Source of the DNA: Phycisphaerae bacterium
Lineage (GTDB): Bacteria > Planctomycetota > Phycisphaerae > UBA1845 > Fen-1342
DNA length: 64,000 nt
Reading direction: 5' to 3'
NCBI GenBank assembly: GCA_963675745.2
Contig: CAXXWX010000028.1
Location: forward strand, 1-64,000
Below are positions 4,549-21,173 of the stretch, one piece after another. Both the position numbers and the translations under genes were made by a program. A model generated the notes under the pieces. That model saw nothing but the letters and a program-made list of their open reading frames with translations, was not told where the DNA came from and searched no databases. Position 1 is the first letter of the stretch; each line of letters starts with the position of its first letter.

Positions 4549-4793
4549 CGCGCCGAGCAATCCGCTACGCCGGAACGACAAGTAGGTGTCGCCGATCACT
4601 GTCGAACGGCTGCGACGCTGGCGGTGTGATTTGCACGCTTGTCCCGCCGTACTAACTCTCGACGTCAAATGTCCGCTAACTCCGCGACTCTTCATCCGCC
4701 TGCCCTCTCAAATTAACCACCCGGATCGCGCTCCGCTGTGTTATGATAAACGTACTCACTTCTCCTGCTGGCGATCAAAAAGGGAGGTCTGCC

Positions 4794-5945
4794 ATGTCCG
4801 CGACACGTATCGCCTGGGGGCTCATGCTCGGCCTGCTGATCTCGTTCGGCACAAGCCCCGCGCTCGCCGTGGATTCCGACGGCGACGGCGTCGATGACTT
4901 GCTCGATGTCTGTCCGAACACGCCGCCCGGGATTGTCGTTGATCCGGAAGGTCGGCCGTACGGCGACCTCGACCTCGACTGCGACGTCGATATCGACGAC
5001 TTCATCCTGTTTCAGTCAAACTTCACCGGGCCGATCGGCGAACCCGAAATCTGTGACGACGGCATCGACAACGATCTGGACAGCCTGATTGACTGCGAAG
5101 ACCCCGATTGCGACGGGCAGACTTGCGGCGTCAACGGTCTGATCTGCATCGAAGAAACATGCCAGTGTCCGGGGGACACCGAGATTTGTGATGACGGCGT
5201 GGACAATGACTGCGACGGCATGACCGACTGCGCAGACCTGGCCGACTGTCCGCAAGACACCGCCTGCGGCCCATTCGGCTATGCCTGCGATCCAAACGCC
5301 ATATGCTCCTGCACGCCGCCGTGGGCCGATTGTGACGGCAACTACGCCAACGGCTGTGAAACCGATCTTGATACCGATCCAGACCACTGCGGTGCCTGCT
5401 GGGATGCTTGCGACATCCCAAACGCCACCTCGCAGTGTGTCGGAGGCGAATGCCAGATGGTGGCCTGCCATACCGGCTGGTGTGATGATGACGGCCTGAT
5501 CGGTAACGGCTGTGAGAAGCAGCTTGATCTCGACCTGCCCTGTTCGTCATCCATCTACATCGGCTCCGTCGCCGGCGATGACTCCTCGAACTGGATCAGT
5601 CACAACCACGTTGGCGAGCAGTGGTTCTACGTTCTCGCGCGTGAAGACGACACCTCGCCGTTCTCCCCCGAAGACCTTGGAGTTACCGTGTACCTGATGC
5701 CGGCCGGCGGTACCGACTATGACCTTTACGTCTATTGCAGCGGCTGCGTCGCACTGGCCGGGTCGTCGACGAATGGTGGTTCCACGCCGGAGATGGTCAT
5801 AGTCGGCTGGGAAGATTCGTTGTTCGAGGATGATGACCGCGAAATTTACATCAAGGTGGACTACGTCCACGCCAACACGTGCGCCGAGTACACGCTGCAA
5901 GTGGAGCCGAACACGCCGGGCCCCGACAACTGCGCTGGGCCGTAA
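4794..5945 (+). CDS. Secreted Cys/Asp-rich protein with Ca-binding/dockerin-like and Cys-rich repeats
   Basis: GGGAGG RBS; signal peptide ending PALA; DSDGDGVDD..DVCP, GDLDLDCDVDIDDF, EICDDG.DND x2, DCDGN..NGCE, DYDLYVY. Confidence 0.75.
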   Translation: MSATRIAWGLMLGLLISFGTSPALAVDSDGDGVDDLLDVCPNTPPGIVVDPEGRPYGDLDLDCDVDIDDFILFQSNFTGPIGEPEICDDGIDNDLDSLIDCEDPDCDGQTCGVNGLICIEETCQCPGDTEICDDGVDNDCDGMTDCADLADCPQDTACGPFGYACDPNAICSCTPPWADCDGNYANGCETDLDTDPDHCGACWDACDIPNATSQCVGGECQMVACHTGWCDDDGLIGNGCEKQLDLDLPCSSSIYIGSVAGDDSSNWISHNHVGEQWFYVLAREDDTSPFSPEDLGVTVYLMPAGGTDYDLYVYCSGCVALAGSSTNGGSTPEMVIVGWEDSLFEDDDREIYIKVDYVHANTCAEYTLQVEPNTPGPDNCAGP

Positions 5946-6256: not shown

Positions 6257-6274
6257 TTGTGAATGATTTCACGA
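6257..6274. promoter_or_regulatory. Palindromic operator, Rex-like (same spacing as CRP-family sites)
   Basis: TTGTGAATGATTTCACGA versus Rex consensus TTGTGAAnnnnTTCACAA (one mismatch), 56 nt before the operon's first ATG. Confidence 0.7.
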
Positions 6275-6330: not shown

Positions 6331-6945
6331 ATGGCTGTCCTTATCTGGACGCCCGGTGACGAAACTGTTCGCAAGTCGGCCCATGAGCCGGACGGGGGGA
6401 AAACAACCACACAAACGCCGACCTCCCAACGCATCGTAGTGGTCGGTCTGGGCAACGAGTTGCTCGGCGATGATGGTGTAGGGATTCTCGCCGCTCGACA
6501 CATACAGCGGGAACTGTCGCCGCAACACCAGGTGCAGATTCGCGAGCTACCCTGGGCCGGGCTCGGGCTGCTTGACGTTTTGCGCGGCTTTGATCGCGCG
6601 ATTCTGATAGACGCGTTATCCAGCGACGGACGTTATCCACCCGGGACGGTACTACGGCTCACTGAGGACGATTTCGCGGGGTCGGTGCGGCTCAATTCAT
6701 TTCATGACATCAACTACCCCACCGCGCTGGCGCTGGGCCGTGCCTTCGGCTGGCCGCTGCCGCGCGCGATCGACATTTTCGCCGTCGAAGGTGGGTCGCT
6801 TTACGAATTCAAGACGCAGTTGTCGGCCCCGGTCGCGGCGGCGTTGAAGACGGTTGTACTCCTGGTCACGCAGATCGTGCGGGGCCACTGTGATGAGGTT
6901 GGCACGAGCGGGTTATACAAATTGGCCGCGGCCGACGTGGCTTGA
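6331..6945 (+). CDS. [NiFe]-hydrogenase maturation protease (HybD/HycI family)
   Basis: VVGLGNELLGDDGVG, AILIDA, SFHD motifs; the MvhA in the same operon has a cleavable C-terminal extension. Confidence 0.92.
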   Translation: MAVLIWTPGDETVRKSAHEPDGGKTTTQTPTSQRIVVVGLGNELLGDDGVGILAARHIQRELSPQHQVQIRELPWAGLGLLDVLRGFDRAILIDALSSDGRYPPGTVLRLTEDDFAGSVRLNSFHDINYPTALALGRAFGWPLPRAIDIFAVEGGSLYEFKTQLSAPVAAALKTVVLLVTQIVRGHCDEVGTSGLYKLAAADVA

Positions 6946-6985
6946 CGCAACCTCTCTTGCCAGCGCAAGAAACGAGAGGTGAGGC

Positions 6986-7657
6986 GTGCCCTCAGCAACT
7001 GGTATGGCCGCATTGCCGGCGGAGCCCGGCGTATTCGGCAAGACAGAACGGGAGTTGCACGAGGCATTTCTGGCGGAGGTCGACCGGATCCCCGGCGGCG
7101 AACGATTGAGGAGGTGCATCCAGTGCGGCACCTGCACCGGGTCATGCCCGGTGAGCTACGCAATGGACCTCACGCCGCGCGAGGTGGTCGCGTATTTCCG
7201 GGCCGGGGCTATTGATCCCATCCTGCGCAGCCGGACCATCTGGGTCTGCGCCTCATGCTACCAATGCACAACGCGTTGCCCGGCGAAGATCAAGATCACG
7301 GAACTGCTGTATGCGCTCAAGCGCGTGGCGTACGACAAGCGCGTCTTTCCCCAGCGTTTTCCCGTGTACGTGCTTTCCGAGACGTTCGTGCAGCAGATCA
7401 GGAAGTATGGCCGCAACCACGAAGCCGAACTGCTGCGCAAGTACTTCCTGCGCACGGGCATCCGGCGTCTGATCAAGCAAGCCCCGCTGGCGGCGAAACT
7501 GTGGCGCAAGGGATGCATTCGGCTTCGCCCGCAGAAAATCAAAGGCCTTGAGGGCCTGCGCCGCATCATCGCGCGGGCCGAGCAATTCGACCGACCGCCC
7601 ATGCACGAAAAGGAAGCCGGGCGGACACGCGAAGTTGGGTACGAAGCAATCGGCTGA
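6986..7657 (+). CDS. hdrC: Heterodisulfide reductase subunit C
   Basis: CIQCGTCTGSCP and IWVCASCYQCTTRCP; adjacent to hdrB. Confidence 0.93.
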   Translation: MPSATGMAALPAEPGVFGKTERELHEAFLAEVDRIPGGERLRRCIQCGTCTGSCPVSYAMDLTPREVVAYFRAGAIDPILRSRTIWVCASCYQCTTRCPAKIKITELLYALKRVAYDKRVFPQRFPVYVLSETFVQQIRKYGRNHEAELLRKYFLRTGIRRLIKQAPLAAKLWRKGCIRLRPQKIKGLEGLRRIIARAEQFDRPPMHEKEAGRTREVGYEAIG

Positions 7658-7714
7658 TATTACCAAGGGCGCCGGGGCCGCGCTGCGCGCACCCGGCCGC
7701 GCGGAGGGTGCTTC

Positions 7715-8608
7715 ATGGACTATTCCTACTATCCGGGCTGCAGCCTGCACTCCACCGGCGTGGCGTATGACGACTCGATGCGCGCCACGTTCGCCGCGCT
7801 GGGTGCCGGACTCATCGAGCTGGACGACTGGAACTGCTGCGGCGCAACGGCGTACATGTCGGTCAAGGAGACGGTCGCCTGCTCGGTGTCGGCGCGCAAC
7901 CTCGCGCTGGTCGAGCAGACCGGACTGGACCTGATCGCACCGTGCAGCGCCTGCTGGTGCGTGCTCAACAAGACGCGCAAGTTCATGCACGAACTGCCAG
8001 AGCTGCGCCAAAACGTCGAGACGGCGCTGAGGGAGGCGGGGCTGTCGTGCAAGTTCGAGTCGGCGGTCCGGCATCCACTGGAGGTCATTGTCAACGACTT
8101 CGGCGTGGACCAGCTCGTCGCCCGGCAGAAGCGCAGCCTCAACGGCCTGCGGGTGGCGTGCTATTACGGCTGCCAGATCGTGCGGCCGGCGCTGGCCATC
8201 GACGATGACGCCGAGGTGCCCATGGTGCTGGACGACCTGTTGGCGGGTCTCGGCGCGCAGCCGGTTCCGTATCCGCCCAAAGCACGCTGCTGCGGCGGCA
8301 TGCTGGTGGCCACGTTCGAGGATGTGGCCGCCAAGCTGTGCGATGAGCTGGCGAGCTGGGCGCGCGTCGAAAACGCGGATTGCATTGTCACCACCTGCCC
8401 GCTCTGCCACGCCAATCTGGAGCTGCTGCAGGAGAAAGCCAAAGCCGGCAACGGCACCGAGCGCGCGCCGCTGCCCGTCCTGTATTTCACACAGCTCATC
8501 GGCGTGGCCCTCGGTTGCAGCCCCGAGCAGGTTGGCCTGGACCACAACTTCACCGCCCTGCAACACGAATTCCCGAGACTCACGGAGGCGCCCAGCCATG
8601 TCGGATAG
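7715..8608 (+). CDS. hdrB: Heterodisulfide reductase subunit B
   Basis: YYPGCS, DWNCCGA, PCSAC, YYGC, CCGG, TCPLC (two CCG domains), PVLYFTQLIG. Confidence 0.95.
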   Translation: MDYSYYPGCSLHSTGVAYDDSMRATFAALGAGLIELDDWNCCGATAYMSVKETVACSVSARNLALVEQTGLDLIAPCSACWCVLNKTRKFMHELPELRQNVETALREAGLSCKFESAVRHPLEVIVNDFGVDQLVARQKRSLNGLRVACYYGCQIVRPALAIDDDAEVPMVLDDLLAGLGAQPVPYPPKARCCGGMLVATFEDVAAKLCDELASWARVENADCIVTTCPLCHANLELLQEKAKAGNGTERAPLPVLYFTQLIGVALGCSPEQVGLDHNFTALQHEFPRLTEAPSHVG

Positions 8609-9509
8609 TCGGGGCAACAACTCGAAGATCGGCGTGTACATCTGCCACTGCGGCGTCAATATCTCGCACACCGTCGACGTGGATGAGTGTCGTGAGTTCG
8701 CGCGGACATGCCCAAACGTGTCCGTCGCGCGCGACTACAAGTTCATGTGCTCAAACACCGGGCAGGAACTGATCCAGAGCGACATCGAAGAGCTGGGGCT
8801 CGACCGCGTCGTGGTCGCCGCCTGCTCGCCGTTGATGCACGAGACGACGTTTCGCGGCGCGTGCCAGGAGGCCGGGCTTAATCCATACCTCTTCCAGATG
8901 GCCAACATCCGCGAGCAGTGCGCGTGGGTACACGACGATCGCAAAATGGCGACGAAGAAAGCCCAGGCGTTGCTCAACGCCGCGATTCACCGCGTCGCGC
9001 TGCACGAGCCGTTGGAGCCGATGCGGGCCAAGATCAATCCGGCGACACTGGTCGTCGGCGCCGGCATCGCCGGTATCCAGGCCTCGCTGGAGTTGGCCGA
9101 GAGTGGCAACCCAGTGTACCTGGTCGAACGCGAGCCGTCGATCGGCGGGAAAATGGCGATGTTTGACAAGACTTTCCCGACCCTCGATTGCGCCGCGTGC
9201 ATCCTCACGCCCAAGATGGTGTCGATCAGCCATCGCAAGAACATCAAGCTCATGACCTATCACGAGGTGGTGAGCGTCAGCGGGTATATCGGTAATTACA
9301 AGGTCCGGTTGCGACGCAAGGCGCGCTATGTCGACCCTGAGAAGTGCACCGGGTGCGGCCAGTGCTGGAGCCACTGCCCCGCCGTGCGCATCCCCACGCG
9401 GCGGACGATTCGCCTGCCGGACAAAATCGTGGGCGAGAAAACGACAGCGCGCCAGCCGGGCACGAATGGACAGCCACAGCACAGCGGCAACGGAAACGGG
9501 AAACCATGA
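8598..9509 (+). CDS. hdrA: Heterodisulfide reductase subunit A, N-terminal half (split gene)
   Basis: KIGVYICHCG, VVAACSP, NIREQCAWVH, GAGIAG (FAD), DKTFPTLDCAACIL, RYVDPEKCTGCGQCWSHCP then a low-complexity tail; 303 aa. Confidence 0.93.
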   Translation: MSDSRGNNSKIGVYICHCGVNISHTVDVDECREFARTCPNVSVARDYKFMCSNTGQELIQSDIEELGLDRVVVAACSPLMHETTFRGACQEAGLNPYLFQMANIREQCAWVHDDRKMATKKAQALLNAAIHRVALHEPLEPMRAKINPATLVVGAGIAGIQASLELAESGNPVYLVEREPSIGGKMAMFDKTFPTLDCAACILTPKMVSISHRKNIKLMTYHEVVSVSGYIGNYKVRLRRKARYVDPEKCTGCGQCWSHCPAVRIPTRRTIRLPDKIVGEKTTARQPGTNGQPQHSGNGNGKP

Positions 9510-9919
9510 CCAAGGCGTCGGCAATCACGCTCGCGGACGCCGTCCAGGCGATCGATGCCCAGGCGCTCGGTGACTCCGGCGCCTGGGACAGGGTCCAGAT
9601 CACGTCGGGCGCGGGGGCCGATCTCATGAGCGACGTGCTGGCGTTTATCAACCCCGGCGCGCTACTGCTCACCGGCCTGACAAACGTGCAGTGCGTGCGG
9701 ACCGCGTTGATCGCCGACGTGAAGGCCCTGGTGTACGTGCGTGGGAAGCGCCCCGACGCGGCCAGCGTCGCGCTCGCACGCGAGCACAACCTGCCTTTGC
9801 TGTGTACGCCATTGACGATGTTTGAAGCGTGCGGCCGGCTTTACCAGGTCGGCCTGCCACCCTGTGTTCTGCCAGCACGCGGTGTGGATGACGATGACGC
9901 TTGTAAAGCGGCAGTTTGA
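9506..9919 (+). CDS. DRTGG-domain protein
   Basis: GADLMSDVL, LLLTGLTN.Q.VRTA, VRGKRP, MFEACGRLY; ATGA overlap with hdrA N-half. Confidence 0.85.
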   Translation: MTKASAITLADAVQAIDAQALGDSGAWDRVQITSGAGADLMSDVLAFINPGALLLTGLTNVQCVRTALIADVKALVYVRGKRPDAASVALAREHNLPLLCTPLTMFEACGRLYQVGLPPCVLPARGVDDDDACKAAV

Positions 9920-10331
9920 GATTCTCGGCGACGATTTCGCAAACGCCGGGAGCGTGTCAACTGAGATCAAGGCCCTGCTCAAGACCGTGGGCTACCCTGA
10001 GCAGGCCGTGCGCCGCGTCGCGATCGCGGTGTACGAAGCGGAGATGAACGTGGTGATGTACGCCCGGCGTGCCAGCGTGGTTGTCGATCTGGACGCCGAG
10101 TGCGTGCGAATCGTCATTGATGATGACGGTCCGGGCATCGCCGACGTAGAGGTTGCCATGCGGGAAGGCTATTCAACGGCCACGGATCGCATGCGGCAGT
10201 TGGGTTTCGGCGCCGGAATGGGGCTGCCCAACATGCGGCGGAATGCCGACGAACTGGCCATTGAATCAGAGGTTGGGCAAGGAACGCGCGTCCATCTCAT
10301 GGTGCGCGCAGGTGAGGCGAATCCGGGATAA
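9888..10331 (+). CDS. Anti-sigma-factor-type Ser/Thr kinase (HATPase_c)
   Basis: GDDFANAG, YEAEMNVV, DDGPGI, GYSTA, GFGAGMGLPN, SEVGQGT. Confidence 0.88.
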   Translation: MTMTLVKRQFEILGDDFANAGSVSTEIKALLKTVGYPEQAVRRVAIAVYEAEMNVVMYARRASVVVDLDAECVRIVIDDDGPGIADVEVAMREGYSTATDRMRQLGFGAGMGLPNMRRNADELAIESEVGQGTRVHLMVRAGEANPG

Positions 10332-10335
10332 GCAC

Positions 10336-11670
10336 ATGACGCTCCACTCGCGATCAGTGCGAATCGATCCCACCCGCTGCCGCGGGCACATGGCGTGTCT
10401 GCGAATCTGTCCGACCGAGGCCATCCGCGTACGCCAGGACGGCGCGCGGCTTCTACCGGGCTTGTGCATCGACTGCGGCATGTGCTTGAGCGTCTGCCCG
10501 ACCGGCGCCTTCTCGCCCCAGGTTGACGCATTCACCGCCTTCGATCGTTTCCGGCACACGATCGCGATCGCTTGCCCGGCGTTGTACGGGCAGTTTGATC
10601 GAGATGTGGAGCCGGAGACCATTCTCGCGTTGCTCCAGAAGCTGGGCTTCAGCGAGGCTGTCGATATGAGCGCCGCAACCGAAGCGGTGCTGCTCGAGTT
10701 GCAACGGATCCTGTCGGAGCGCAGCGGACCCGATCCGCTGATATCACCATTCTGCCCGGCGGTCGTGCGCCTGACACAGGTTCGCTACCCGTCACTGGTA
10801 AATCTGATCACGCCGCTGGAGTCGCCACAGGAATTGCTGGCGGCGGCGTTGCGTGAAAACCGGGCGCGCGTGCTGGGCCTGCGACCCGATCAGATCGGCA
10901 TCGTGTACATCACACCCTGCACGGCAAAGACCGCGGCCCTGAAACTGCACACGCAATTCGAGCCATCGCATCTCGATGGCGCTGTTGCCATCAGCCACGT
11001 GTACGGCCGTCTGCGCGCCGCGCTGGAGGACGCCGATCCGGCGCCCCGGTCGGCGAATAACGGCGTGTGCGGCCCCGGCTTGAATTGGGCGCTGGTGGGT
11101 GGCCAGGGACTCGCGCTGGAACCGGATGACGCGCTGGCGGTCAGCGGGCTCGAAAACGTCGTGCGCGCACTCGACGATATCGAGCGCGGGCAAATCCGCG
11201 ACGTGGCCTATCTCGAGTGCTGGGCCTGCCGCGACGGCTGCGTCGGCGGCTGCCTCACAGTGGGCAATCCCTATCAGGCGCGGCGCCGACTAATGCGACT
11301 CGCCCGGCAACGCGGCCTGGACTTCAACGTCGAGCGCGCCGCCGTGCGCAATCTGTCAGGACATTCGGCGCTGCGCGCGACGCCTGTTGTGCCGCGTCAA
11401 GGAAACCCGCTCGACTCTGATCTGCTGACATCGCTGGAGAAGATGCGTCAGGCGGATGAGCTGCGCGCCAGGTTGCCGCAAAACAACTGCGGTGCATGTG
11501 GCTCGCCGAGCTGCCGCGCCTTCGCCGAGGATGTTGTGCAGGGTCGCGTGGATGAAACGGACTGCGTGTTCCTGCTGCGCGGGCGTCTGCACGCCGCGAA
11601 ACATGAGTTGGACTCCATCGTCAACCGGTTACCCACCGCGCGGCTGGGCGCGACGGAGGACGCCGAATGA
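10336..11670 (+). CDS. Putative sensory [FeFe]-hydrogenase-like protein (group D-like architecture)
   Basis: N-terminal ferredoxin motifs (CRGHMACLRICP, CIDCGMCLSVCP); divergent H-cluster motifs SPFCP, TPCTAK, ECWACRDGCVGG; C-terminal FeS domain LPQNNCGACGSPSC. Confidence 0.85.
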   Translation: MTLHSRSVRIDPTRCRGHMACLRICPTEAIRVRQDGARLLPGLCIDCGMCLSVCPTGAFSPQVDAFTAFDRFRHTIAIACPALYGQFDRDVEPETILALLQKLGFSEAVDMSAATEAVLLELQRILSERSGPDPLISPFCPAVVRLTQVRYPSLVNLITPLESPQELLAAALRENRARVLGLRPDQIGIVYITPCTAKTAALKLHTQFEPSHLDGAVAISHVYGRLRAALEDADPAPRSANNGVCGPGLNWALVGGQGLALEPDDALAVSGLENVVRALDDIERGQIRDVAYLECWACRDGCVGGCLTVGNPYQARRRLMRLARQRGLDFNVERAAVRNLSGHSALRATPVVPRQGNPLDSDLLTSLEKMRQADELRARLPQNNCGACGSPSCRAFAEDVVQGRVDETDCVFLLRGRLHAAKHELDSIVNRLPTARLGATEDAE

Positions 11671-12014
11671 AGCTGCGCGCACTGATTGATGCACTAGGGC
11701 TAAAGCTGTGCTGCGGAGAGGCGCACCTGGAACGTGAGGTGACGGGTGGCTACGTCGGCGACCTGCTGAGCGACGTGGTGGCCAACAGTCACGCCGGCGA
11801 CATTTGGGTCACGCTTCAGGCGCACGAGAACTCTGTCGCCGTGGCGAGCCTGCGCGATCTGGCCGGCATCGTTTTTGTGGGTGGTCGCGAGCCGAACGAG
11901 GAGACCGCGCGGCAAGCCGAGCAGCGCGGCGTACCTCTGCTGAGCAGTTCCGAACGGGCTTTTGAGGTGGTTGCGCGCCTGGTCGAGGCCGGCGTGCCGA
12001 CGAGACGAGCGTGA
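11667..12014 (+). CDS. DRTGG-domain protein
   Basis: VTGGYVGDLLSDV, IWVTLQAHENSVAVASL. Confidence 0.85.
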   Translation: MKLRALIDALGLKLCCGEAHLEREVTGGYVGDLLSDVVANSHAGDIWVTLQAHENSVAVASLRDLAGIVFVGGREPNEETARQAEQRGVPLLSSSERAFEVVARLVEAGVPTRRA

Positions 12015-12015
12015 G

Positions 12016-12750
12016 ATGCGGACTTTTCGCGCCGATTTGCATGTCCACACGTGTTTGTCGCCCTGCGGCGAGCTCGAAATGACGCCGCGCGCCATCCTTG
12101 ATGTCGCCCAGCGGCGGCGCCTGGATATCGTCGGCATCTGCGATCACAACGCGGCGGCAAATGTGCCCGCCGCCGTGCGCGCCGCACACCCTGGGGCAAC
12201 GGTTGTCATCGCCGGACTCGAGGTCACGTCGCGTGAAGAGGTACACGTGCTGGCGCTCTTCGACACTCCCGCGGCGGCGCTCGATATGCAGGCGTACGTG
12301 CTCGCCCATCTCGCCGGTGAGAACGACGCCGACGTGTTTGGCCCACAGGTGATCGTAGACGACGCCGGCGACCCGGCCGAGTTGTGCCCGCACCTGCTGA
12401 TCGGAGCGACCGACCTCAGCCTGTCCGAGGTTGTTGAAGCGATACACGCCCGCGCGGGTTGTGCGATCGCGGCCCATGTCGATCGTGAGCGTTTCGGGGT
12501 CATTGGGCAGCTTGGTTTCGTGCCGCTGGCGCTGCCGCTGGACGGGCTGGAGTTCTCGCCGCGCGTCTCGCGCGCCGACGCCCGGCTGCGCTACGCCGAC
12601 AACGACCGATGGGAGCTCGTCTGTGGCTCGGATGCGCACCGCCTGGATGAAATCGGCCGCGGCTGGACTGATTTTGAATTGGAACGACCTGAGGTCGCGG
12701 AAATCCGCATGGCACTGCATCGCACCGGAGGACGACGCGTCGTCGCGTGA
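12016..12750 (+). CDS. PHP-domain metal-dependent phosphoesterase
   Basis: DLHVHTCLSPC, ICDHN, EEVH, AHVDR, SDAH. Confidence 0.9.
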   Translation: MRTFRADLHVHTCLSPCGELEMTPRAILDVAQRRRLDIVGICDHNAAANVPAAVRAAHPGATVVIAGLEVTSREEVHVLALFDTPAAALDMQAYVLAHLAGENDADVFGPQVIVDDAGDPAELCPHLLIGATDLSLSEVVEAIHARAGCAIAAHVDRERFGVIGQLGFVPLALPLDGLEFSPRVSRADARLRYADNDRWELVCGSDAHRLDEIGRGWTDFELERPEVAEIRMALHRTGGRRVVA

Positions 12751-12760
12751 AGATACGCCA

Positions 12761-13330
12761 ATGGAAGACCTCTCGCTGCACATGCTGGACATCGCCGAAA
12801 ACTCGATCCGCGCCGGTGCGCGCCTCGTTGAGCTGCGCGTGCGCGAAGACGATTCAAGCGGCCTGCTGGAGATTGAGATCAGCGATGACGGTTGCGGCAT
12901 GGATGAGCAGGCGCGCCGCGCGGCGCTGAGTCCGTTCAGCACCTCGCGCACCGAACGCGACATCGGTCTGGGCTTGCCGCTATTGGCCCAGGCGGCGCGC
13001 GCAACCGGCGGTGACTTTGAGATTCGTTCCGAACCCGGACACGGCACGCGCGTGCGGGCGACATTCATGGCCGATCACATTGACTGCAAGCCGTGGGGCG
13101 ATCTGCTGGGCAGCTTTCGCACGCTCGCCGTGGGCAACCCGCAGGTGCGCTTCGTGCTGGAAGTGATCGGGCGTGATGGAGTCGAGCGGCTCGACTCCCG
13201 CCAATTGCGCGACACGACGGAGACCAAACCCGGCCGCGCGGCGCCGAAACACGTCGCCGCACCGGCCAATCGTCTGACACAAGATCCAGACTCGAATTGC
13301 GCGGAGCATGATGATGTCGACAGTCGCTGA
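12761..13330 (+). CDS. Histidine-kinase-like ATPase (HATPase_c)
   Basis: MEDLSLHMLDIAENS, DDGCGM, PFSTSRT, GLGLPL, SEPGHGT. Confidence 0.88.
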   Translation: MEDLSLHMLDIAENSIRAGARLVELRVREDDSSGLLEIEISDDGCGMDEQARRAALSPFSTSRTERDIGLGLPLLAQAARATGGDFEIRSEPGHGTRVRATFMADHIDCKPWGDLLGSFRTLAVGNPQVRFVLEVIGRDGVERLDSRQLRDTTETKPGRAAPKHVAAPANRLTQDPDSNCAEHDDVDSR

Positions 13331-13817
13331 GTACACCGAAACGCAGACACGCGAGATCATCGATCGCTGGGGCGGCCATCCGTCCTTCGTGATCGAGATG
13401 TTGCAGGACGTGCAGCAGAGCGCGCGGTATCTGCCCAAGGACGCCCTGAGCGAAATATCCAGCGCCACCGGCGTACCGATGGCGCAGCTCTACCACCTGG
13501 CAACTTTCTACAAGGCCTTCAGTCTCGAGCCGCGCGGGCAATTCGTGGTTCGCGTGTGCCAGGGCACCGCTTGTCACGTGCAAGGAGGTGTGCGCGTGAT
13601 GGAGTCCTGCTGCCGGCATCTCGATGTCGAGCCGGGTGAGACCACGCCGGACGGGATGTTCAGCGTGGAGCCCGTCCAGTGCCTGGGCTGCTGCGGGCTC
13701 GCGGCGGTCATGACCGTGGAAGACGATCTCTACGGGCACGTGAAATCCGTGCGCGTGCCGAAAATCCTCGACAAGTACAAGAAGCTGGCGGCCAAGTCGG
13801 AGGAGTCGACGTCATGA
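13308..13817 (+). CDS. NuoE/HydC-like [2Fe-2S] subunit
   Basis: ATFYKAFSL.PRG, VCQGTACHVQG, CLGCCGLA. Confidence 0.92.
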   Translation: MMMSTVAEYTETQTREIIDRWGGHPSFVIEMLQDVQQSARYLPKDALSEISSATGVPMAQLYHLATFYKAFSLEPRGQFVVRVCQGTACHVQGGVRVMESCCRHLDVEPGETTPDGMFSVEPVQCLGCCGLAAVMTVEDDLYGHVKSVRVPKILDKYKKLAAKSEESTS

Positions 13818-14194
13818 AACTCACCGCTGATAAGCTCACGCAACTGCGTGATGAAATCCGGGCGCAGCAGTCCGCGCGCGAGAGCGAGTCGCGCGCGACG
13901 GTCACAGTCCACATGGGCACCTGCGGCATCTCGGCCGGGGCGCGCGAGGTGATGACGGCCTTGCTGGACGCCCTGCGCGAGCGAGCCGTGAATGACGTTC
14001 GCGTGACCACGTCGGGCTGCGCCGGTCTGTGCAGCCGCGAGCCGATGGCCACAGTCCAGATTCATGAACAGGCCCCGGTCAAATACGTCGAACTGAACGC
14101 CGGCAAAATCGCCCGCATTCTGGATGACCACATCCTCGGCGGCGAGATTGTCAAGGAATACGCGCTGGCCATTGGCAGTGAGAGGACCGCCTGA
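13814..14194 (+). CDS. Thioredoxin-like [2Fe-2S] ferredoxin subunit (HydD/HndB-like)
   Basis: VHMGTCGISAGAR, SGCAGLCSREP, HILGG. Confidence 0.88.
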   Translation: MKLTADKLTQLRDEIRAQQSARESESRATVTVHMGTCGISAGAREVMTALLDALRERAVNDVRVTTSGCAGLCSREPMATVQIHEQAPVKYVELNAGKIARILDDHILGGEIVKEYALAIGSERTA

Positions 14195-16080
14195 TGTTGG
14201 AGCCCACGAAACCCCAAAACGGGAACGGCAACGGCGCGGCCCCGACCGGCCAGCGCCTGCACCTGATGGTCTGTGCCGGTACCGGGTGCGTCAGTAACAA
14301 CTCGATGAAGGTCAAGGAGGCGCTGGACGCCGAAATCGAGCAGCGCGGGCTCGCGAGCGAGGTCCAGGTGATCGCGACGGGCTGCAACGGCTTCTGCGGA
14401 GTCGGGCCGCTGTTGCTGGTCCAGCCTGACGGCATCCTGTACCAGAAACTGCAGCCGAGTCATATCCCGCACCTCGTCGAAGAGCATCTGCTGAAAGGAC
14501 GGCCGGTCGAGAAGCACATGTATCAACCACCCGAGGGCGGCCATCCGATTCCGCTGATGCACGACATCCCCTTCTTCAGAAAGCAGGTGTTGATCACGCT
14601 GCGAAACCGCGGACTGATCGATCCAGAGAAGATCGACGACTATATCGCGCGCGACGGCTATCAAGCGCTCGCCAAGGCCCTCACGCAGATGACTCCCCAG
14701 CAGGTGGTCGACGAGGTCAAGGCCTCGGCGCTGCGTGGTCGCGGCGGCGGCGGTTTCCCGACCGGCGTGAAGTGGGAGACCTGCCGCAACGCACACTCGG
14801 AAGACGGTGCCAAGTACGTGATCTGCAACGCCGACGAGGGTGATCCCGGCGCCTTCATGGACCGCAGCATCATCGAGGGCAACCCCCACTCCGTGATCGA
14901 AGGCATGCTCATCGGCGCCTATGCCATCGGCGCCACCAAGGGGTTCATCTACGTCCGGCTCGAATATCCGTTGGCGCTGAAGCGCTTTCTGATCGCGCTC
15001 GGACAGGCGCGCGAGTACGGGCTGCTGGGCGAGAACATCCTCGGCACCGATTTCAGCCTCGACATCGAAGTTCACCGGGGCGCCGGCGCGTTTGTCTGCG
15101 GCGAGGCCACCGCCTTGATGGCTTCGATTGAGGGACGCGTCGGCGAGCCGCGCGCCAAATACGTCCACACCGTTGAGCGCGGACTCTGGGATCGTCCCTC
15201 CTGCCTCAACAACGTCGAGACCTGGGCCAACGTGCCATTGATCATCCGCGACGGCGCGAGCTGGTTCACGCAGCTCGGCACCGGCGATACCAGCGAGAGC
15301 CCGTGGGGCGGGTCGAAGGGCACAAAGGTGTTTTCGCTCGCCGGCAAGGTGAACAACACCGGCCTGGTCGAAGTTCCCATGGGTATCACCCTGCGCGAAA
15401 TCATCTACGACATCGGCGGTGGCATCCAGGACGGCAAGAAATTCAAGGCGGTGCAGACCGGCGGGCCATCGGGCGGGTGTCTGCCCGAGCGTTTGCTCGA
15501 CACGGACATTCTCGATCTTGAGGTCGACTTCGACACGCTGGTCCAGGCCGGCTCGATGATGGGTTCGGGCGGCATGGTCGTCATGGCCGAAGACGATTGC
15601 ATGATCGATGTGGCCCGCTACTTCATCGAGTTCCTCATGGGCGAGTCGTGCGGCAAGTGTACACCCTGCCGCGAGGGGCTCCGCAACATGGCCGCGATTC
15701 TCAAGCGCATCTGCGACGGCCAGGGGCGCGAAGGCGACATCGAGCTGCTCGAGGAATTGGGCCACGCCATGATGGATGGATCGTTGTGCGGGCTGGGCAC
15801 ATCGGCCCCCAATCCGATCATGAGCACGATTCGCTATTTCCGCGAAGAGTTCGAGGCGCACATCCGCGACAAGAAATGCCCGGCGGGCGTGTGCCGCGAG
15901 CTGGTGACGTTTTCGATCGACCCCGAGCGCTGCAACGGCTGCACGCTGTGCGCCCAGGCCTGCCCGGCGCGGGCGATCGTCGGTGAGAAGAAGAAGGTGC
16001 ACGCGATCGAGCCGACCAACTGCACAAAGTGCGGCGCGTGCTATGACGCGTGCAACTTCCACGCGGTGATTCGCAACTGA
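14194..16080 (+). CDS. NuoF/HydB-like NADH/FMN subunit with extra Fe-S domains
   Basis: N-terminal VCAGTGC..GCNGFC; LRGRGGGGFPTG, CNADEGDPGAFMDR, GAGAFVCGE, GGPSGG, ESCGKCTPCR, CPAGVC; C-terminal 2x[4Fe-4S]. Confidence 0.95.
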   Translation: MLEPTKPQNGNGNGAAPTGQRLHLMVCAGTGCVSNNSMKVKEALDAEIEQRGLASEVQVIATGCNGFCGVGPLLLVQPDGILYQKLQPSHIPHLVEEHLLKGRPVEKHMYQPPEGGHPIPLMHDIPFFRKQVLITLRNRGLIDPEKIDDYIARDGYQALAKALTQMTPQQVVDEVKASALRGRGGGGFPTGVKWETCRNAHSEDGAKYVICNADEGDPGAFMDRSIIEGNPHSVIEGMLIGAYAIGATKGFIYVRLEYPLALKRFLIALGQAREYGLLGENILGTDFSLDIEVHRGAGAFVCGEATALMASIEGRVGEPRAKYVHTVERGLWDRPSCLNNVETWANVPLIIRDGASWFTQLGTGDTSESPWGGSKGTKVFSLAGKVNNTGLVEVPMGITLREIIYDIGGGIQDGKKFKAVQTGGPSGGCLPERLLDTDILDLEVDFDTLVQAGSMMGSGGMVVMAEDDCMIDVARYFIEFLMGESCGKCTPCREGLRNMAAILKRICDGQGREGDIELLEELGHAMMDGSLCGLGTSAPNPIMSTIRYFREEFEAHIRDKKCPAGVCRELVTFSIDPERCNGCTLCAQACPARAIVGEKKKVHAIEPTNCTKCGACYDACNFHAVIRN

Positions 16081-16092
16081 TGGAGCGCGACG

Positions 16093-17853
16093 ATGGTTAC
16101 CATCGAGATTGACGGACAGAAGGTGCAGCTCGAAGAGGGCGAGCCGATTCTGCGCGGCGCCGAAAAGCTCGGCATACGCATCCCCACCCTGTGCAGCAGC
16201 CCCTGGCTCGAGCCGAGCGGCGCCTGTCGCGTCTGCTCGGTCGAGGTGGTGCGCCGCAACAAGGGACGCATTGTCACCGCCTGCAACTACCCGGCCTCCG
16301 AGGGCCTGGTCGTGAAGACGGATTCAGAGCGGGCGCTCGCGGTGCGACGGATGGTGCTGGAGACACAGCTCGCGCGCTGTTCGCACGTGCCGGCCATCCA
16401 GGAGCTGGCGCGCGAATTCGGTATCGAGAAATCACGCTTCGGCGAAGGCACCGAGACGTGCATTCTCTGCGGACTTTGCGTGCGCACCTGCGCCGAGCTG
16501 GTCCAGGCCAACGCGCTGTGTTTCGGTGATCGTGGCGTCGACCGCGTCGTTACGACACCGTTCGAGGTCTCGGCCGAGGCCAACACCTGCATTGCCTGCG
16601 GCGCCTGCGTGAGCGCCTGCCCGACCGACCACATTTCGCTGGAAGATCACGCGCTGCGGCGTGGCGCCACGCAGGACTTCTACCTTGGCCCGAAGACCGC
16701 CATCAACCTGCCCTTCCAGCAAGCTGTGCCAAAAGTCCCCTGGATCGACGCCGACGCCTGCATCAAGCTCCAGACCGGCGGGTGCGGCATCTGCGCCCAG
16801 GTCTGCGAGCCCGGCGCCATCAACTATGAACAAAAGGACGAGGAATTCGAGATTGAAGTCGGCCAGATCCTCCTGACGACCGGCTATCAGCCGTTCGCGA
16901 TGGAGCAGATGGCCCAATATGGCTATGGTCGGCTGGACAACGTCTACACGGCGCTTGATTTCGAGCAGATGTTGAACTCGACCGGGCCGACCGGAGGAAA
17001 GGTCCTCTGCAAGGACGGCAAAACCCCGCACGCCATCGGAATCATTCACTGCGTCGGCTCGCGCGATGAGACCCAGCACCGCTACTGCTCGCGCGTCTGC
17101 TGCATGTACGCGCTCAAATTCGCCCACCTGGTGACCGAGCGCACGGACGCCGAGGTTTACCAGTTCTACATCGACATGCGCGCTTTTGGCAAAGGTTACG
17201 AGGAGTTCTATTCGCGCGTCTTGAACGAGGGCGCGACGGTGATCCGCGGCAAGGTCGCCGAGATCGCGCCGGCGCTGGGGCGCGGCAACGGGACGCGTGA
17301 AGGTCACCTGCTCGTGCGCTGCGAGGACACGCTGGTCGGCAAGTTCCGCGAAATCCCGGTGGACATGGTCGTGTTGTGCAATGCCCTCGAGCCACATGCG
17401 GACGTTGCCGACGTCGCCAAGACCTTCTCGCTTTCGCGCAGCCCGGATGGTTTCTACCTCGAACGACACCCGAAGCTCGATCCGGTCGGCACGATGACCG
17501 ACGGCGTCTACATCGCCGGCACCTGTCAGGGACCAAAGGACATTCCCGACACGGTCGCGCAGGCGCAGGCGGCGGCGGCCCGCATCCTGGCGCTGATCGG
17601 CAAGGGTGAAGTGCTCATCGATCCCATTCGGGCCGCCATCAACGCCGACAACTGCTCGGGTTGCCGAATGTGCAACGCCCTGTGTCCCTACCAGGCTATC
17701 TCGTTCAACGAGGAGCTGACGGTGTCCGAGGTGAACGAAACGCTGTGCAAGGGTTGCGGCACGTGTGTGGCCGCGTGTCCCACCGGCGCCATCACCGGCT
17801 CGGGCTTTACAGACGAGCAGATCATGACCGAACTCGAAGCCATTCTGGTTTAG
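16093..17853 (+). CDS. Fusion of HydA/NuoG-like N-terminal Fe-S module and HdrA C-terminal half
   Basis: aa 1-185: IPTLC, GACRVC, TAC, CILCGLCVRTC, CIACGACVSACP. From aa ~195: KTAINLPFQQAVP, CVGSRD, YCSRVCCMYALK, FYIDMRAFGKGYEEFY, HPKL.PV, CQGPKDIPD, C-terminal 2x[4Fe-4S]. Confidence 0.92.
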   Translation: MVTIEIDGQKVQLEEGEPILRGAEKLGIRIPTLCSSPWLEPSGACRVCSVEVVRRNKGRIVTACNYPASEGLVVKTDSERALAVRRMVLETQLARCSHVPAIQELAREFGIEKSRFGEGTETCILCGLCVRTCAELVQANALCFGDRGVDRVVTTPFEVSAEANTCIACGACVSACPTDHISLEDHALRRGATQDFYLGPKTAINLPFQQAVPKVPWIDADACIKLQTGGCGICAQVCEPGAINYEQKDEEFEIEVGQILLTTGYQPFAMEQMAQYGYGRLDNVYTALDFEQMLNSTGPTGGKVLCKDGKTPHAIGIIHCVGSRDETQHRYCSRVCCMYALKFAHLVTERTDAEVYQFYIDMRAFGKGYEEFYSRVLNEGATVIRGKVAEIAPALGRGNGTREGHLLVRCEDTLVGKFREIPVDMVVLCNALEPHADVADVAKTFSLSRSPDGFYLERHPKLDPVGTMTDGVYIAGTCQGPKDIPDTVAQAQAAAARILALIGKGEVLIDPIRAAINADNCSGCRMCNALCPYQAISFNEELTVSEVNETLCKGCGTCVAACPTGAITGSGFTDEQIMTELEAILV

Positions 17854-17894
17854 CGGAATCGCCCAATGCCCTGGGAAGTTAGCGAGTGAGAGCA

Positions 17895-18362
17895 ATGAAC
17901 ACGGATCTGGCGCCTGCGGGCGCGAAAACCGAACGAGCGACGCCGGCCGACAGCGACAACTGGCAGCCCAAGATCGTCGCCTTCCTGTGCAACTGGTGCA
18001 GCTACACCGGCGCCGATCTGGCCGGCGTCTCGCGCATGAAGTGGTCGGCGTGCGTGCGCAATGTGCGCATCATGTGTACCGGACGCATGGACCCCACCTT
18101 TGTCGTCGAGGCCTTTCGCAAGGGCGCCGACGGCGTGCTCATCTCCGGTTGTCACCCCGGCGACTGTCACTACATCCAGGGGAATTACAAAACCCTACGA
18201 CGTGTACATCTGCTGAAACGCCTGCTGGCGGACTTCGGGGTTGAGCCTGAGCGACTAAAGCTCACCTGGGTCTCGGCCAGCGAGGGCGATCGCTGGGCGG
18301 AAGTCACCAACGAAATCACGGAAACCATCCGGTCACTTGGACCTTTGAGGTTGGAACTATGA
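17895..18362 (+). CDS. mvhD: Methyl-viologen-reducing hydrogenase delta subunit
   Basis: FLCNWCSYTGADLAG, MCTGR, GCHPGDCHY..GN, WVSASEG; alternative start GTG 17886. Confidence 0.95.
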   Translation: MNTDLAPAGAKTERATPADSDNWQPKIVAFLCNWCSYTGADLAGVSRMKWSACVRNVRIMCTGRMDPTFVVEAFRKGADGVLISGCHPGDCHYIQGNYKTLRRVHLLKRLLADFGVEPERLKLTWVSASEGDRWAEVTNEITETIRSLGPLRLEL

Positions 18363-19429
18363 ATGAGGGAGCTGCTGCATCCTCGGATTCTAAGCCGGAA
18401 GCGACGGCAAAGCCCAAACTGGCGCTTTACTGGGCGGCCTCCTGCGGCGGGTGCGAAATCGCCGTGCTCGACATAAAGGAGAAGATCCTCGATGTCGACG
18501 CCAATTTCGAGATCGTCTTCTGGCCGGTCGCCGTGGATTTCAAGACCAAGGATGTCGAGGCTTTGGCCGACGGCGCGATCACGCTCTGCCTGTTCAACGG
18601 CGCGATCCGCACCGACGACAACGAATACATGGCCAAACTGCTGCGCCGCAAGTCACAGGTGCTGGTGGCCTTCGGCTCGTGCGCCATGGAGGGCTGCATC
18701 CCCGCGCTGAGCAACTCAACATCGCGCGCGGCCACGCTCGATTGGGTCTACCGCGACTCCCCATCAACCGACAACGACGCGGACGTCCGACCACAGACCA
18801 CGAGCAAGGTCAACGGCTTCGACATCGAGCTGCCGGCATTCTGGGAGACCGTACGGGCGCTCGATCAGGTGGTGGATGTGGACTATTACGTGCCCGGCTG
18901 TCCGCCGCAGGCACATCAAATCTGGGCCGTGCTCGAGACGGTCATCGACATTCTCAAGACCGGCAAGCCGCTGCCACCGAAGGGCACCGTGCTGGGCGCG
19001 GGCAACAAGAGCTGTTGTGACGAATGCCCGCGCACGCGCGAAGAGAAGAAGATCAGCAAGTTCGTGCGGATCGTTGACGTCATTCCGGACCCCGACAAGT
19101 GCCTGCTGGACCAGGGCATTCTGTGCATGGGACCCGCGACACGTGACGGCTGCGGGGCCAAATGCGTGTCCGTGGGCATGGCCTGCCGCGGCTGCTACGG
19201 ACCGCCGCCCAACTCAAAGGATCAGGGGGCCAAGATGATTTCGGCGCTGGCATCCGTGATTGACTCGGAGGATCCCGAGGAAATCGAGCGCATCCTGGAT
19301 GGCGTCCTTGATCCGATCGGCAGCTTCTATCGCTTCTCACTCGCAACCGCCAGGCTCGGGCGACGACGCATGCCGGGCCAACCGGCGGGCGCCGGCGCAA
19401 CGCGGCACGTAACGGAGGATACACCGTGA
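18359..19429 (+). CDS. mvhG: Group 3c [NiFe]-hydrogenase small subunit
   Basis: WAASCGGCE, FGSCA.EGCIP, PGCPP, CDECP, CLLDQG.LCMGPATR.GC, CRGCYGP. Confidence 0.92.
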   Translation: MNEGAAASSDSKPEATAKPKLALYWAASCGGCEIAVLDIKEKILDVDANFEIVFWPVAVDFKTKDVEALADGAITLCLFNGAIRTDDNEYMAKLLRRKSQVLVAFGSCAMEGCIPALSNSTSRAATLDWVYRDSPSTDNDADVRPQTTSKVNGFDIELPAFWETVRALDQVVDVDYYVPGCPPQAHQIWAVLETVIDILKTGKPLPPKGTVLGAGNKSCCDECPRTREEKKISKFVRIVDVIPDPDKCLLDQGILCMGPATRDGCGAKCVSVGMACRGCYGPPPNSKDQGAKMISALASVIDSEDPEEIERILDGVLDPIGSFYRFSLATARLGRRRMPGQPAGAGATRHVTEDTP

Positions 19430-20904
19430 AGACGATCAAAATCGATCCGGTCACGAGACTGGAAGGACACGGGCGTATCGACATCTTCGTCAACGACGAC
19501 GGGGATGTGGCCGATTGCTTCTTCGTCGTCCCGGAGCTGCGCGGTTTCGAGCAGTTCTGTGTCGGCCGGCCCGTCGAGGAGATGCCCCGCATCACGTCGC
19601 GCATTTGCGGCGTGTGCAGCGAGGCCCACCACATCGCCGCCGCAAAGGCCTGTGACGCTGTCTATCACGTCGAGCCGCCGCCCGCGGGCCGCAAACTGCG
19701 CGAGTTGCTCTATTCGGCGTTTTTCACGGGCGACCATGCGACGCACTTTTATATCCTGGCCGCACCGGATTTCGTGTTGGGCCCCGACGCCCCGCCGGCC
19801 GAGCGCAATATTCTGGGTTTGATCAAGAAGGTTGGCCTGGAGGCGGGCAAGCGCGTGATCGATGCGCGGGCCGCCGCTCATGAGATTGTCGAGCTCATCG
19901 GCGGCAAGACCGTACACATGGTCAGCGCGATTCCCGGCGGCGTATCGAAGGGGGTGACGAGCGAGCAGCGCGATCGTATGGTCGAACTTGCCGGGCAGTT
20001 GGTCGAATTCGGCAAGTTCACGCTGGACATTCTGCAATCGGTCGTGCTGGATAACAAAGGCTACGTCGATCTGATCCTGTCCGACACGTACACCCATCGA
20101 ACGCACTACATGGGCCTCGTGGACGAACACAACCACCCCAACTTCTATGATGGGCAGATCCGCGTTGTCGATCCCGACGGAGCCCAGGTCGCAAAGTACG
20201 CCGCGCGCGACTATCTCCAACACGTCGCGGAGCACGTGGAGACGTGGTCTTACCTGAAATTCCCTTACCTCAAGGCGCGCGGGTGGCACGGGCTGGTTGA
20301 TGGCAACGACAGCGGTGTGTATCGCGCTACCCCCCTTTCACGTCTCAACGCCGCCGACGGCATGGCGACGCCGCTCGCACAAGCCGAATATGAACGTTTC
20401 TACGAGACGCTCACCGGCGATCGCAGCGGTCACAAGCCGGTGCACCAGACGCTCGCGACGCATTGGGCGCGCGTGGTTGAGCTGGTTTACGCCGCCGAAC
20501 ACACCCTGGAGCTCGCGCGCGACGAGGAGATTCTGGACCCGTGCGTGCGTGTCGTCCCAACGGCCACGCCGGACGAGGGCGTGGCAACTGTCGAGGCGCC
20601 GCGTGGCACGCTCACACATCATTACGTCACCGATGAGCGCGGCGTGCTGACCAGCGTCAACCTGATCGTCGGCACGACCAACAACAACGCGGCGATCTGC
20701 ATGTCGATCAAGAAGGCCGCACAAGCGCTGATTCAAAAGGGCGTCGAGGTCACAGAGGGTTTGCTGAATCGCATCGAGATGGCGTTTCGCGCCTACGATC
20801 CGTGCTTCGGCTGCGCCACGCACACGCTGCCCGGAAAGATGCCAATGGCCGTGCGCATTTTGAATGCAAATGGCGAAGTCCTCGCCCACGGACAGCGCGA
20901 CTGA
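19426..20904 (+). CDS. mvhA: Group 3c [NiFe]-hydrogenase large subunit
   Basis: DPVTRLEGH, L1 RICGVC, EAPRGTL.HHY, L2 RAYDPCFGCATH followed by a 25-aa extension. Confidence 0.95.
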   Translation: MKTIKIDPVTRLEGHGRIDIFVNDDGDVADCFFVVPELRGFEQFCVGRPVEEMPRITSRICGVCSEAHHIAAAKACDAVYHVEPPPAGRKLRELLYSAFFTGDHATHFYILAAPDFVLGPDAPPAERNILGLIKKVGLEAGKRVIDARAAAHEIVELIGGKTVHMVSAIPGGVSKGVTSEQRDRMVELAGQLVEFGKFTLDILQSVVLDNKGYVDLILSDTYTHRTHYMGLVDEHNHPNFYDGQIRVVDPDGAQVAKYAARDYLQHVAEHVETWSYLKFPYLKARGWHGLVDGNDSGVYRATPLSRLNAADGMATPLAQAEYERFYETLTGDRSGHKPVHQTLATHWARVVELVYAAEHTLELARDEEILDPCVRVVPTATPDEGVATVEAPRGTLTHHYVTDERGVLTSVNLIVGTTNNNAAICMSIKKAAQALIQKGVEVTEGLLNRIEMAFRAYDPCFGCATHTLPGKMPMAVRILNANGEVLAHGQRD

Positions 20905-21173
20905 CAAAAAACGCAGACCGAGCCGGCCCAGCGCCCCGATGCGGTTCAAGTCATAGCCGTCGCTGCGGCGGCATCCGCGGCGTAACATCCGCCTGCCATT
21001 ATGGGCGCCGTCACTGCTACGCGCCGCGCCTCCGAGACTCCCCCCCCCCCCCGCCGTCTCCACCAGAACGGCGCACGGCCCTTGCTTTTGCGGAACGCAC
21101 TCGGCAAACTGGAAGGCCTGACGCGGCGTTGCGGTCAATCCCAGCGCCGCCATGCTCTGGGGAGTGGGAAACA

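Follow-up and report, generated by a model that had tools for sequence, protein, structure and literature searches.

A split HdrA joined to a Bfu module in a conserved bacterial operon for a candidate twice-bifurcating [NiFe] hydrogenase

Introduction

Bfu and HdrA modules have been found together in one solved complex, the class II benzoyl-CoA reductase Bam[(BC)2DEFGHI]2 of Geobacter metallireducens, and the preprint on this complex calls two distinct modules in one supercomplex previously unreported (bioRxiv 10.64898/2026.04.10.717634); that Bfu feeds HdrA in Bam is proposed in PMC9304861. According to the preprint, the inserted ferredoxin of HdrA and BamE is the low-potential output, and the C-terminal ferredoxin together with MvhD is the input. 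In Bam, the Bfu module delivers electrons to the HdrA input, where BamI passes them to BamF and the C-terminal ferredoxin, and BamBC is fed from the inserted ferredoxin. Here, we analyze a 17-gene operon at positions 6331 to 20904 of a 64,000-nucleotide stretch (the window) of contig CAXXWX010000028.1, from a Phycisphaerae metagenome-assembled genome, in which a Bfu subunit is instead fused to HdrA at the inserted ferredoxin.

Like Bam, the operon is predicted to combine HydBC/Bfu and HdrA in series, with a BfuA that has only clusters A1, A2, and A4 and with an MvhD-type adaptor. It differs in that a [NiFe] hydrogenase is placed at the input, HdrA is split rather than doubled, and HdrB keeps ten Cys residues; the tungsten aldehyde oxidoreductase BamBC, a tandem BamE, and a Bfu at the input are all absent among the 17 proteins. 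The initial annotation of this DNA had considered Hdr and Hyd modules to be normally separate, a view that the Bam complex, although wired inversely, does not support.

The methanogen MvhAGD-HdrABC complexes (5ODC, 8RVU, and 7BKB) share with the window six subunit types, the equivalents of K409 and E356, the cluster ligands, and the length of MvhG. In contrast, the window has a two-chain HdrA, a BfuA fused at the ferredoxin exit, Gln in place of His in HdrB, and a bacterial host, and it lacks the single chain with a free inserted ferredoxin that characterizes type I HdrA. Type III HdrA/HdrL resembles the window in having an NAD(P) module at the same ferredoxin domain and an hdrCB-hdrA-mvhDGA context, but it is a single chain with an inserted GltD, one extra flavin, and one substrate (PMC12054007), whereas the window has a split gene and a three- or four-subunit module for NAD plus ferredoxin, and GltD is absent. 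The NiFe-HydABCSL of Acetomicrobium mobile (7T2R) and WorABCSL (9MQX) have the BfuBC core in common with the window, in which the hydrogenase is joined through MvhD and HdrA. Since cluster A3, the entry cluster of NiFe-Bfu enzymes (PMC9304861 and PMC8880783), is absent, the window would have no HydS docking route.

Bacterial clusters of group 3c hydrogenase and Hdr genes have been noted without the split (PMC5317091, which calls their function unknown, and PMC7509429). We found no description of the split HdrA/Bfu layout in the literature searched, most subscription papers lying outside it, and no Hdr-Mvh-Bfu type is named in the available part of the main text of PMC9304861. The operon, whose architecture the initial annotation also had not recognized as characterized, is a real, conserved variant of known modules that is apparently undescribed.

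Results

HdrA is encoded by two genes

The product of the gene at 8598-9509 covers positions 1 to 258 of the HdrA2 profile and aligns with residues 4 to 261 of 5ODC_A, and residues 194 to 584 of the fusion protein cover profile positions 261 to 640. By these alignments, the two genes are complementary halves of a single HdrA, not the separate hdrA plus fusion that had been annotated. All five HdrA domains with all their cluster ligands are present when the two genes are combined, the C-terminal ferredoxin being on the fusion, and a tblastn search of the genome (E value of 1e-8) gave no further hdrA, hdrB, or hdrC. The equivalents of E356 and K409 at the HdrA flavin adenine dinucleotide (FAD) site are E291 and K342 of the fusion, each present in 59 of 59 homologs (frameshifted genes or those less than 75% covered were omitted from each such count); E356 and K409 are important for bifurcation by type I HdrA (PMC12054007). 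The idea that the fusion wires Hyd and Hdr together therefore stands in part: Bfu and HdrA are covalently tied, since each of the 59 aligned fusions has BfuA and the HdrA C-half on a single chain, and the bifurcation hallmarks of both modules are retained, but the fusion is not a second HdrA.

The cut in HdrA separates the two Cys motifs of its inserted ferredoxin. One (C250/253/256/260), conserved in 45 of 45 homologs, closes the HdrA N-half; the other (C223/231/234/238), conserved in 59 of 59, is in the fusion, C-terminal to the BfuA domain. In a two-cluster ferredoxin, every cluster binds three Cys residues of one motif plus one of the other. Since the motifs are on separate chains, both chains are needed to form the inserted ferredoxin.

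The multimer prediction suggested in the initial annotation was run with fusion residues 1 to 258, N-half residues 238 to 284, and four [4Fe-4S] clusters. The median run scored 0.82, relative to 0.00 for the best control; at least 95% of the contacts were shared between runs, and the predicted local distance difference test value of the partner was at least 86. The contacts with the lowest predicted error were C234-C260 and C238-C256, which fit the ferredoxin rule, C169-262, and C166-278. In addition, the conserved tail of the N-half (261-282) was predicted to lie on BfuA residues 166 to 188, beside C166 and C169, whose cluster we take to be A4 by analogy with CpI. The two chains are thus predicted to rebuild the inserted ferredoxin and share its two [4Fe-4S] clusters, with the N-half tail packed on BfuA. 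This prediction supports, but does not show, binding of the HdrA halves. Cluster A4 is the entry point in type 1 and 2 Bfu enzymes (PMC9304861).

None of the solved structures matched by the fusion covers BfuA and HdrA together. AlphaFold modeling of the fusion alone gave a predicted template modeling score of 0.38 with a poorly ordered HdrA part and was used for the BfuA fold match only. In that match, the N-terminal domain of the fusion superposes on 9MQX_A, the BfuA of WorABCSL, with a root mean square deviation of 2.3 Å over 188 columns.

Bfu and hydrogenase modules

His-ligated A3 is absent from BfuA in the window and in all 59 homologs (0/59). Relative to Bfu types 1 to 4, the cluster content is that of type 2, whereas fusion to the partner domain is a trait of type 1. 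In BfuB, the B1, B3, and B4 Cys residues and the B2 ligands C469, H556, C562, and C567 are present in 53 of 53 homologs, the AFM loop in 45, F300 in 52, and the N-terminal C27/C32 in 49. The window BfuB has the complete B2 set (C469, C507, H556, C562, and C567) together with AFM, F300, and GGPSG; the features given for Bfu are C438, C476 or T, H525, C531, and C536 at B2, with AFM, F282, and GGPSG (PMC8880783). Its best solved matches are the HydB subunits of bifurcating enzymes, and the flavin mononucleotide (FMN) site and clusters B1 to B5 of BfuB and cluster C1 of BfuC are those of the Bfu family. The DEGDPGA FMN loop is deleted in 4 of the 53 homologs (L003, L036, L052, and L063), and all four loci are without the DRTGG/PHP cassette described below and the thioredoxin-type ferredoxin.

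The small subunit supports the earlier classification of MvhDGA as group 3c-like, since it matches 5ODC_E with 204 bits over residues 20 to 332, compared with 75 bits for 7T2R_E. The L1/L2 Ni motifs, a three-cluster MvhG, and adjacent MvhD and Hdr genes, all features of group 3c, are likewise found. The large subunit is a near tie between 7T2R_D (NiFe-HydL, 376 bits) and 5ODC_F (MvhA, 366 bits), and its best NCBIfam match is VhuA, below the family cutoff.

Elsewhere in the genome are genes for a NuoEFG resembling complex I, Rnf, HypF, a Hox-type hydrogenase, and one further [NiFe] hydrogenase, which could use the products of the complex. The rnfC match (G000:C1:184517-185840) is spread over two open frames, possibly through a frameshift. 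Other CCG proteins are encoded on C3, C6, and C19.

The split is conserved in 11 named phyla

A search for relatives gave 416, of which the best 80 loci were kept, so the sample leans to close matches. The split is present in 50 of these 80 loci and absent from 12, and in the other 18 the contig ends before the N-half is reached; all 17 genes occur in 33. The split loci come from 11 named phyla and are 56 to 89% identical on both halves. A ten-gene core is present in 40 of the 50 (in Ignavibacteriota, Acidobacteriota, Bacteroidota, Planctomycetota, Sumerlaeota, Calditrichota, and Chlorobiota), accompanied by the accessory cassette in 35 of the 40. The nearest relative is a Phycisphaerae record whose fusion is 85% identical. 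Among kin, the distribution is patchy: 2 of 60 related genomes and 0 of 3 from the same genus encode a full-length fusion. The genome itself is 91% complete with 6% contamination. Logan contigs span 8828-14839 and 15207-17770; they possibly derive from the source sample and hence are not independent. Misassembly, a concern of the initial annotation, is excluded by these comparisons, given that the same split recurs in 50 of the 80 loci and that a Logan contig covers it.

A GltD-type module occupies the corresponding HdrA site in 10 of the 12 unsplit relatives, all ten having the NADPH-type motifs GGGNxA and YRR. A GxGxxA rule for cofactor type is given in PMC12054007. Neither Fer4_20 nor a GltD block was found in the window genes by Pfam search. 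One genome of the window's family contains a frameshifted GltD form with matching gene order and Hdr/Mvh genes 70 to 80% identical. In a quick, midpoint-rooted tree built from the HdrA core common to both forms (50 rows, a motif filter having removed 13 of the 62 loci), the two forms intermingle, the split label requiring 4 changes and GltD 3, as forced by the starred branches. Given these changes, the plug at this HdrA socket appears to have been exchanged several times, in a direction that the tree does not show. With NADP(H) at -380 mV and the NAD/ferredoxin mean for Bfu at -390 mV (PMC9304861), the Bfu and GltD plugs are calculated to offer about equal potential.

Two relatives, L004 (8828-11452) and L006 (8900-11413), have an A2/A4 ferredoxin nested within a single-chain HdrA and no BfuBC alongside. 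Since these single chains keep the tail and A2/A4 domain of the split form and are neighbors of the window on the tree, their sequences suggest that they were re-fused from the split form. L046 and G001:C1:714347-715771 together show directly adjoining hdrA halves and a 61 to 64% identical bfuB ~780 kb away; this distant bfuB, partly masked by N, is a possible partner in trans.

Upstream box and accessory cassette

A Rex-type box (Table 1; consensus from PMC5317091) precedes the operon. Shuffled sequences gave a mean of 0.07 matches, and 7 of 100 shuffles had at least one. The genome contains a rex gene (C1:11845) and a second box ahead of a hypC-hox operon (G000:C16:194703), which places one before each of its two cytoplasmic NAD-linked hydrogenase operons; the two boxes are among six distinct genome sites with at most 2 mismatches. 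The hox genes and their upstream box occur twice (G000:C2:36-7953 and C16:186444-194703) with equal scores, probably as an assembly duplicate. Rex-type boxes also stand at promoter-like places in L005, L015, L069, L071, L077, L029, and L039. Among loci with at least 250 nt of upstream DNA, a box with at most 2 mismatches within 450 nt before the first mapped gene was found in 1 of 43 split and 2 of 12 unsplit loci, and none was found in the nearest relative, L002. The operon box also fits CRP/FNR spacing. Scans for sigma-70 promoters and terminators were at chance level (1 promoter versus 2.7 and 12 terminators versus 9.9 by chance). In L069 (5548), L071 (5367), and L077 (5363), a small gene that looks ferritin-like by eye heads a GltD-type operon behind the Rex-type box.

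The initial annotation also assigned a sensory module to the operon. In the Fe-S protein of the accessory cassette, the four cluster Cys residues and F139 in motif 1 are present in 39 of 39 homologs, and the Met position is variable; F139 stands where the proton-transfer Cys of [FeFe] hydrogenase is expected. Of the maturases, HydG was searched for and not found in the 91% complete genome. On these grounds, the protein does not match a sensory or catalytic [FeFe] hydrogenase, for which a full set of H-cluster motifs and the maturases HydEFG would be expected. H2 sensing by the cassette is not demonstrated, given the invariant Phe and the missing HydG, and 5 of the 40 ten-gene-core loci do without the cassette. 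No literature on a DRTGG/PHP cassette was found. In L094 (G063:C83), the cassette lies between nuoF and the fusion and has no match to the Fe-S protein.

Gene content of the operon and its surroundings

As initially annotated, the 17 open reading frames (ORFs) are co-oriented, with intergenic distances of -32 to +58 nt, and GC content is flat (0.62 to 0.65). Pfam and NCBIfam profile searches gave names for all 17 products that agree with the earlier assignments, including HdrABC, MvhDGA, and the NuoE/thioredoxin-ferredoxin/NuoF set (Table 1).

Table 1. Operator and genes of the operon, with window coordinates
Feature	Position	Strand	Evidence or remarks
Rex-type operator TTGTGAA-N4-TTCACGA, 1 mismatch	6257..6274	.	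57 nt 5' of first ATG
[NiFe] hydrogenase maturation protease	6331..6945	+	PF01750, TIGR00072
HdrC, 2x[4Fe-4S]	7004..7657	+	TIGR03290; 8 Cys in 60/60 homologs
HdrB, two CCG domains	7715..8608	+	Noncubane cluster ligands: ten Cys retained (59/59), Gln at the His position (Q154, 59/59)
HdrA N-half: N-terminal cluster domain, FAD GxGxxG, C250/253/256/260, conserved tail	8598..9509	+	HdrA2 profile; 5ODC_A 4-261
DRTGG protein, accessory cassette	9506..9919	+	PF07085
SpoIIAB-like ATPase/kinase, cassette	9888..10331	+	PF13581, TIGR01925
Fe-S protein with [FeFe]-hydrogenase fold (Fe_hyd_lg_C), cassette	10336..11670	+	Four cluster Cys kept; F139 invariant
DRTGG protein, cassette	11667..12014	+	Pfam
PHP phosphoesterase, cassette	12016..12750	+	Pfam
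HATPase_c protein (ATPase/kinase), cassette	12761..13330	+	Pfam
BfuC/HydC (NuoE-like), [2Fe-2S]	13308..13817	+	C84, C89, C125, C129 in 54/54 homologs
Thioredoxin-like ferredoxin, HydD/HndB-like	13814..14194	+	NF041612 weak match; 3 Cys in 46/46
BfuB/HydB (NuoF): FMN/NAD site, clusters B1-B5, AFM, F300, GGPSG	14194..16080	+	Profiles, conserved ligands
Fusion of BfuA (residues 1-185; A1, A2, A4) and HdrA C-half	16093..17853	+	Profiles, 5ODC alignment, conserved ligands
MvhD adaptor, [2Fe-2S]	17895..18362	+	PF02662; 5 Cys in 64/64
MvhG, full-length three-cluster small subunit	18359..19429	+	5ODC_E, 204 bits
MvhA, [NiFe] large subunit, RICGVC ... DPCFGCATH, C-terminal extension	19426..20904	+	NCBIfam, motifs

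The operon is flanked by genes for secreted-looking proteins (4743-5945 and 20802-23456), one Cys-rich with a weak match to a metal-binding repeat and the other without a Pfam match. Further along, the window contains an ordinary polysaccharide biosynthesis cluster (29454-58715; Wzz/kinase, sugar transferases, Wzy, flippase, sulfotransferase, and heparinase-like) with an exosortase.

Discussion

The gene content, the fusion, and the complex prediction make it probable that the products form one MvhAGD-HdrABC-BfuABC(D) complex with Bfu on the low-potential arm of HdrA. Since Bfu sits at the inserted ferredoxin, the wiring would be Hdr and then Bfu. H2 would be oxidized at MvhA, and electrons would pass from MvhG through the C-terminal ferredoxin of HdrA and MvhD to the HdrA FAD. 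There, one electron would go by way of HdrC and HdrB to a putative disulfide or persulfide, and the other would go through the rebuilt ferredoxin to BfuA (A4, A2, and A1) and on to BfuB, which would split electrons again between NAD+ and ferredoxin (Fd). The net reaction would be 4 H2 + 2 RSSR' + NAD+ + 2 Fd(ox) <=> 4 thiol + NADH + 2 Fd(red), which is reversible.

Calculated from literature potentials of other organisms, H2 would be at equilibrium at 0.9 Pa in the series if the acceptor is at -140 mV and at 66 Pa if it is at -250 mV. In the -140 mV case, the corresponding values are 66 Pa when Mvh-Hdr reduces Fd and 15,000 Pa when a Bfu hydrogenase acts by itself. H2 uptake is judged likelier because it would be downhill down to about 1 to 70 Pa H2. 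The hallmarks kept in both HdrA (E291 and K342) and BfuB (B2 ligands, AFM, and F300) lead us to lean slightly toward both sites bifurcating in series with net H2 uptake. The full picture is more tentative: a widespread, twice-bifurcating bacterial hydrogenase with HdrA before Bfu, two shared [4Fe-4S] clusters, and a swappable socket, which may produce ferredoxin and NADH from ~70-fold lower H2 than Mvh-Hdr alone by means of a bacterial disulfide.

Several observations weigh against this reading. The mark used for the predicted complex was reached by 116 of 157 solved pairs and by 2 of 215 mismatched ones, a calibration that applies only roughly to our own alignments with ligands, and the ferredoxin part of the complex may pass through its likeness to solved HdrA. 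The His ligand of HdrB is Gln in 59 of 59 homologs, HdrB scores equally with the profile of an SdhE-type anchor family, and an acceptor search found no DsrC/TusE in the genome. Some split loci are without an adjacent mvhDGA, although all 5 such genomes that were checked encode an MvhD at another place. Loss of the FMN loop in 4 of 53 BfuB homologs implies that the second bifurcation may be dispensable in some lineages, and the potentials above are borrowed. Finally, Rex represses NADH-oxidizing genes until NADH rises (PMC5317091), so the Rex-type box fits NADH consumption better than H2 uptake.

This last point bears on the strongest alternative, namely, that the same complex runs as an electron dump. 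In this case, Bfu would confurcate NADH and reduced ferredoxin, and electrons at about -390 mV would enter HdrA via the inserted ferredoxin and exit as H2, either along with thiol oxidation (double confurcation, at low H2 only) or with a split between disulfide and protons, as has been proposed for type III HdrA. The boxes ahead of this operon and hypC-hox, the rex gene, and the promoter-like boxes in seven relatives are consistent with such a direction, and NADH input at the same site has been proposed for GltD-type HdrA (PMC12054007). However, strict reversal requires H2 below about 1 to 66 Pa plus a thiol source, the box is absent from L002 and most loci, and Rex may merely mark anoxia. We consider an electron dump rather unlikely.

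It is doubtful that only HdrA bifurcates and that Bfu is a plain wire or diaphorase, serving NAD+ alone (like the GltD plug) or ferredoxin alone. The interchange of the socket with a single-substrate NADPH module, the FMN-loop deletions, and the retention of the tail and A2/A4 domain without adjacent BfuBC in L004 and L006 all point in this direction. Nevertheless, the window BfuB has every feature that separates bifurcating from nonbifurcating homologs (Schut 2022 and Feng 2022), and it is closest to HydB of bifurcating enzymes. Two separate, cotranscribed enzymes sharing genes, an Mvh-Hdr and an Acetomicrobium-type NiFe-Bfu hydrogenase, would agree with the slightly better match of the large subunit to 7T2R_D than to 5ODC_F, but this arrangement is very improbable with BfuA and the HdrA C-half on one polypeptide in every fusion aligned, A3 absent throughout, an MvhG-type small subunit, and an intact MvhD. 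An assembly error, or a recent insertion destroying hdrA, can be dismissed in spite of the patchy distribution in kin and the 6% contamination, since the split recurs across phyla with identity on both halves, GC is flat, and a Logan contig spans the split.

If the series arrangement of HdrA and Bfu is correct, it would represent a second way of chaining bifurcation modules, one that lowers the donor threshold, taking trace H2 to ferredoxin, whereas Bam lowers the output potential. Many loci in Ignavibacteria, Acidobacteria, and other bacteria of sediment and peat that are now annotated as "group 3c Mvh-Hdr" would then be reassigned, and there would be a defined complex with which to find the bacterial Hdr acceptor. 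The split gene and its Bfu and GltD plugs would also show evolutionary rewiring of the low-potential arm of HdrA and would mark a natural splice point for engineering.

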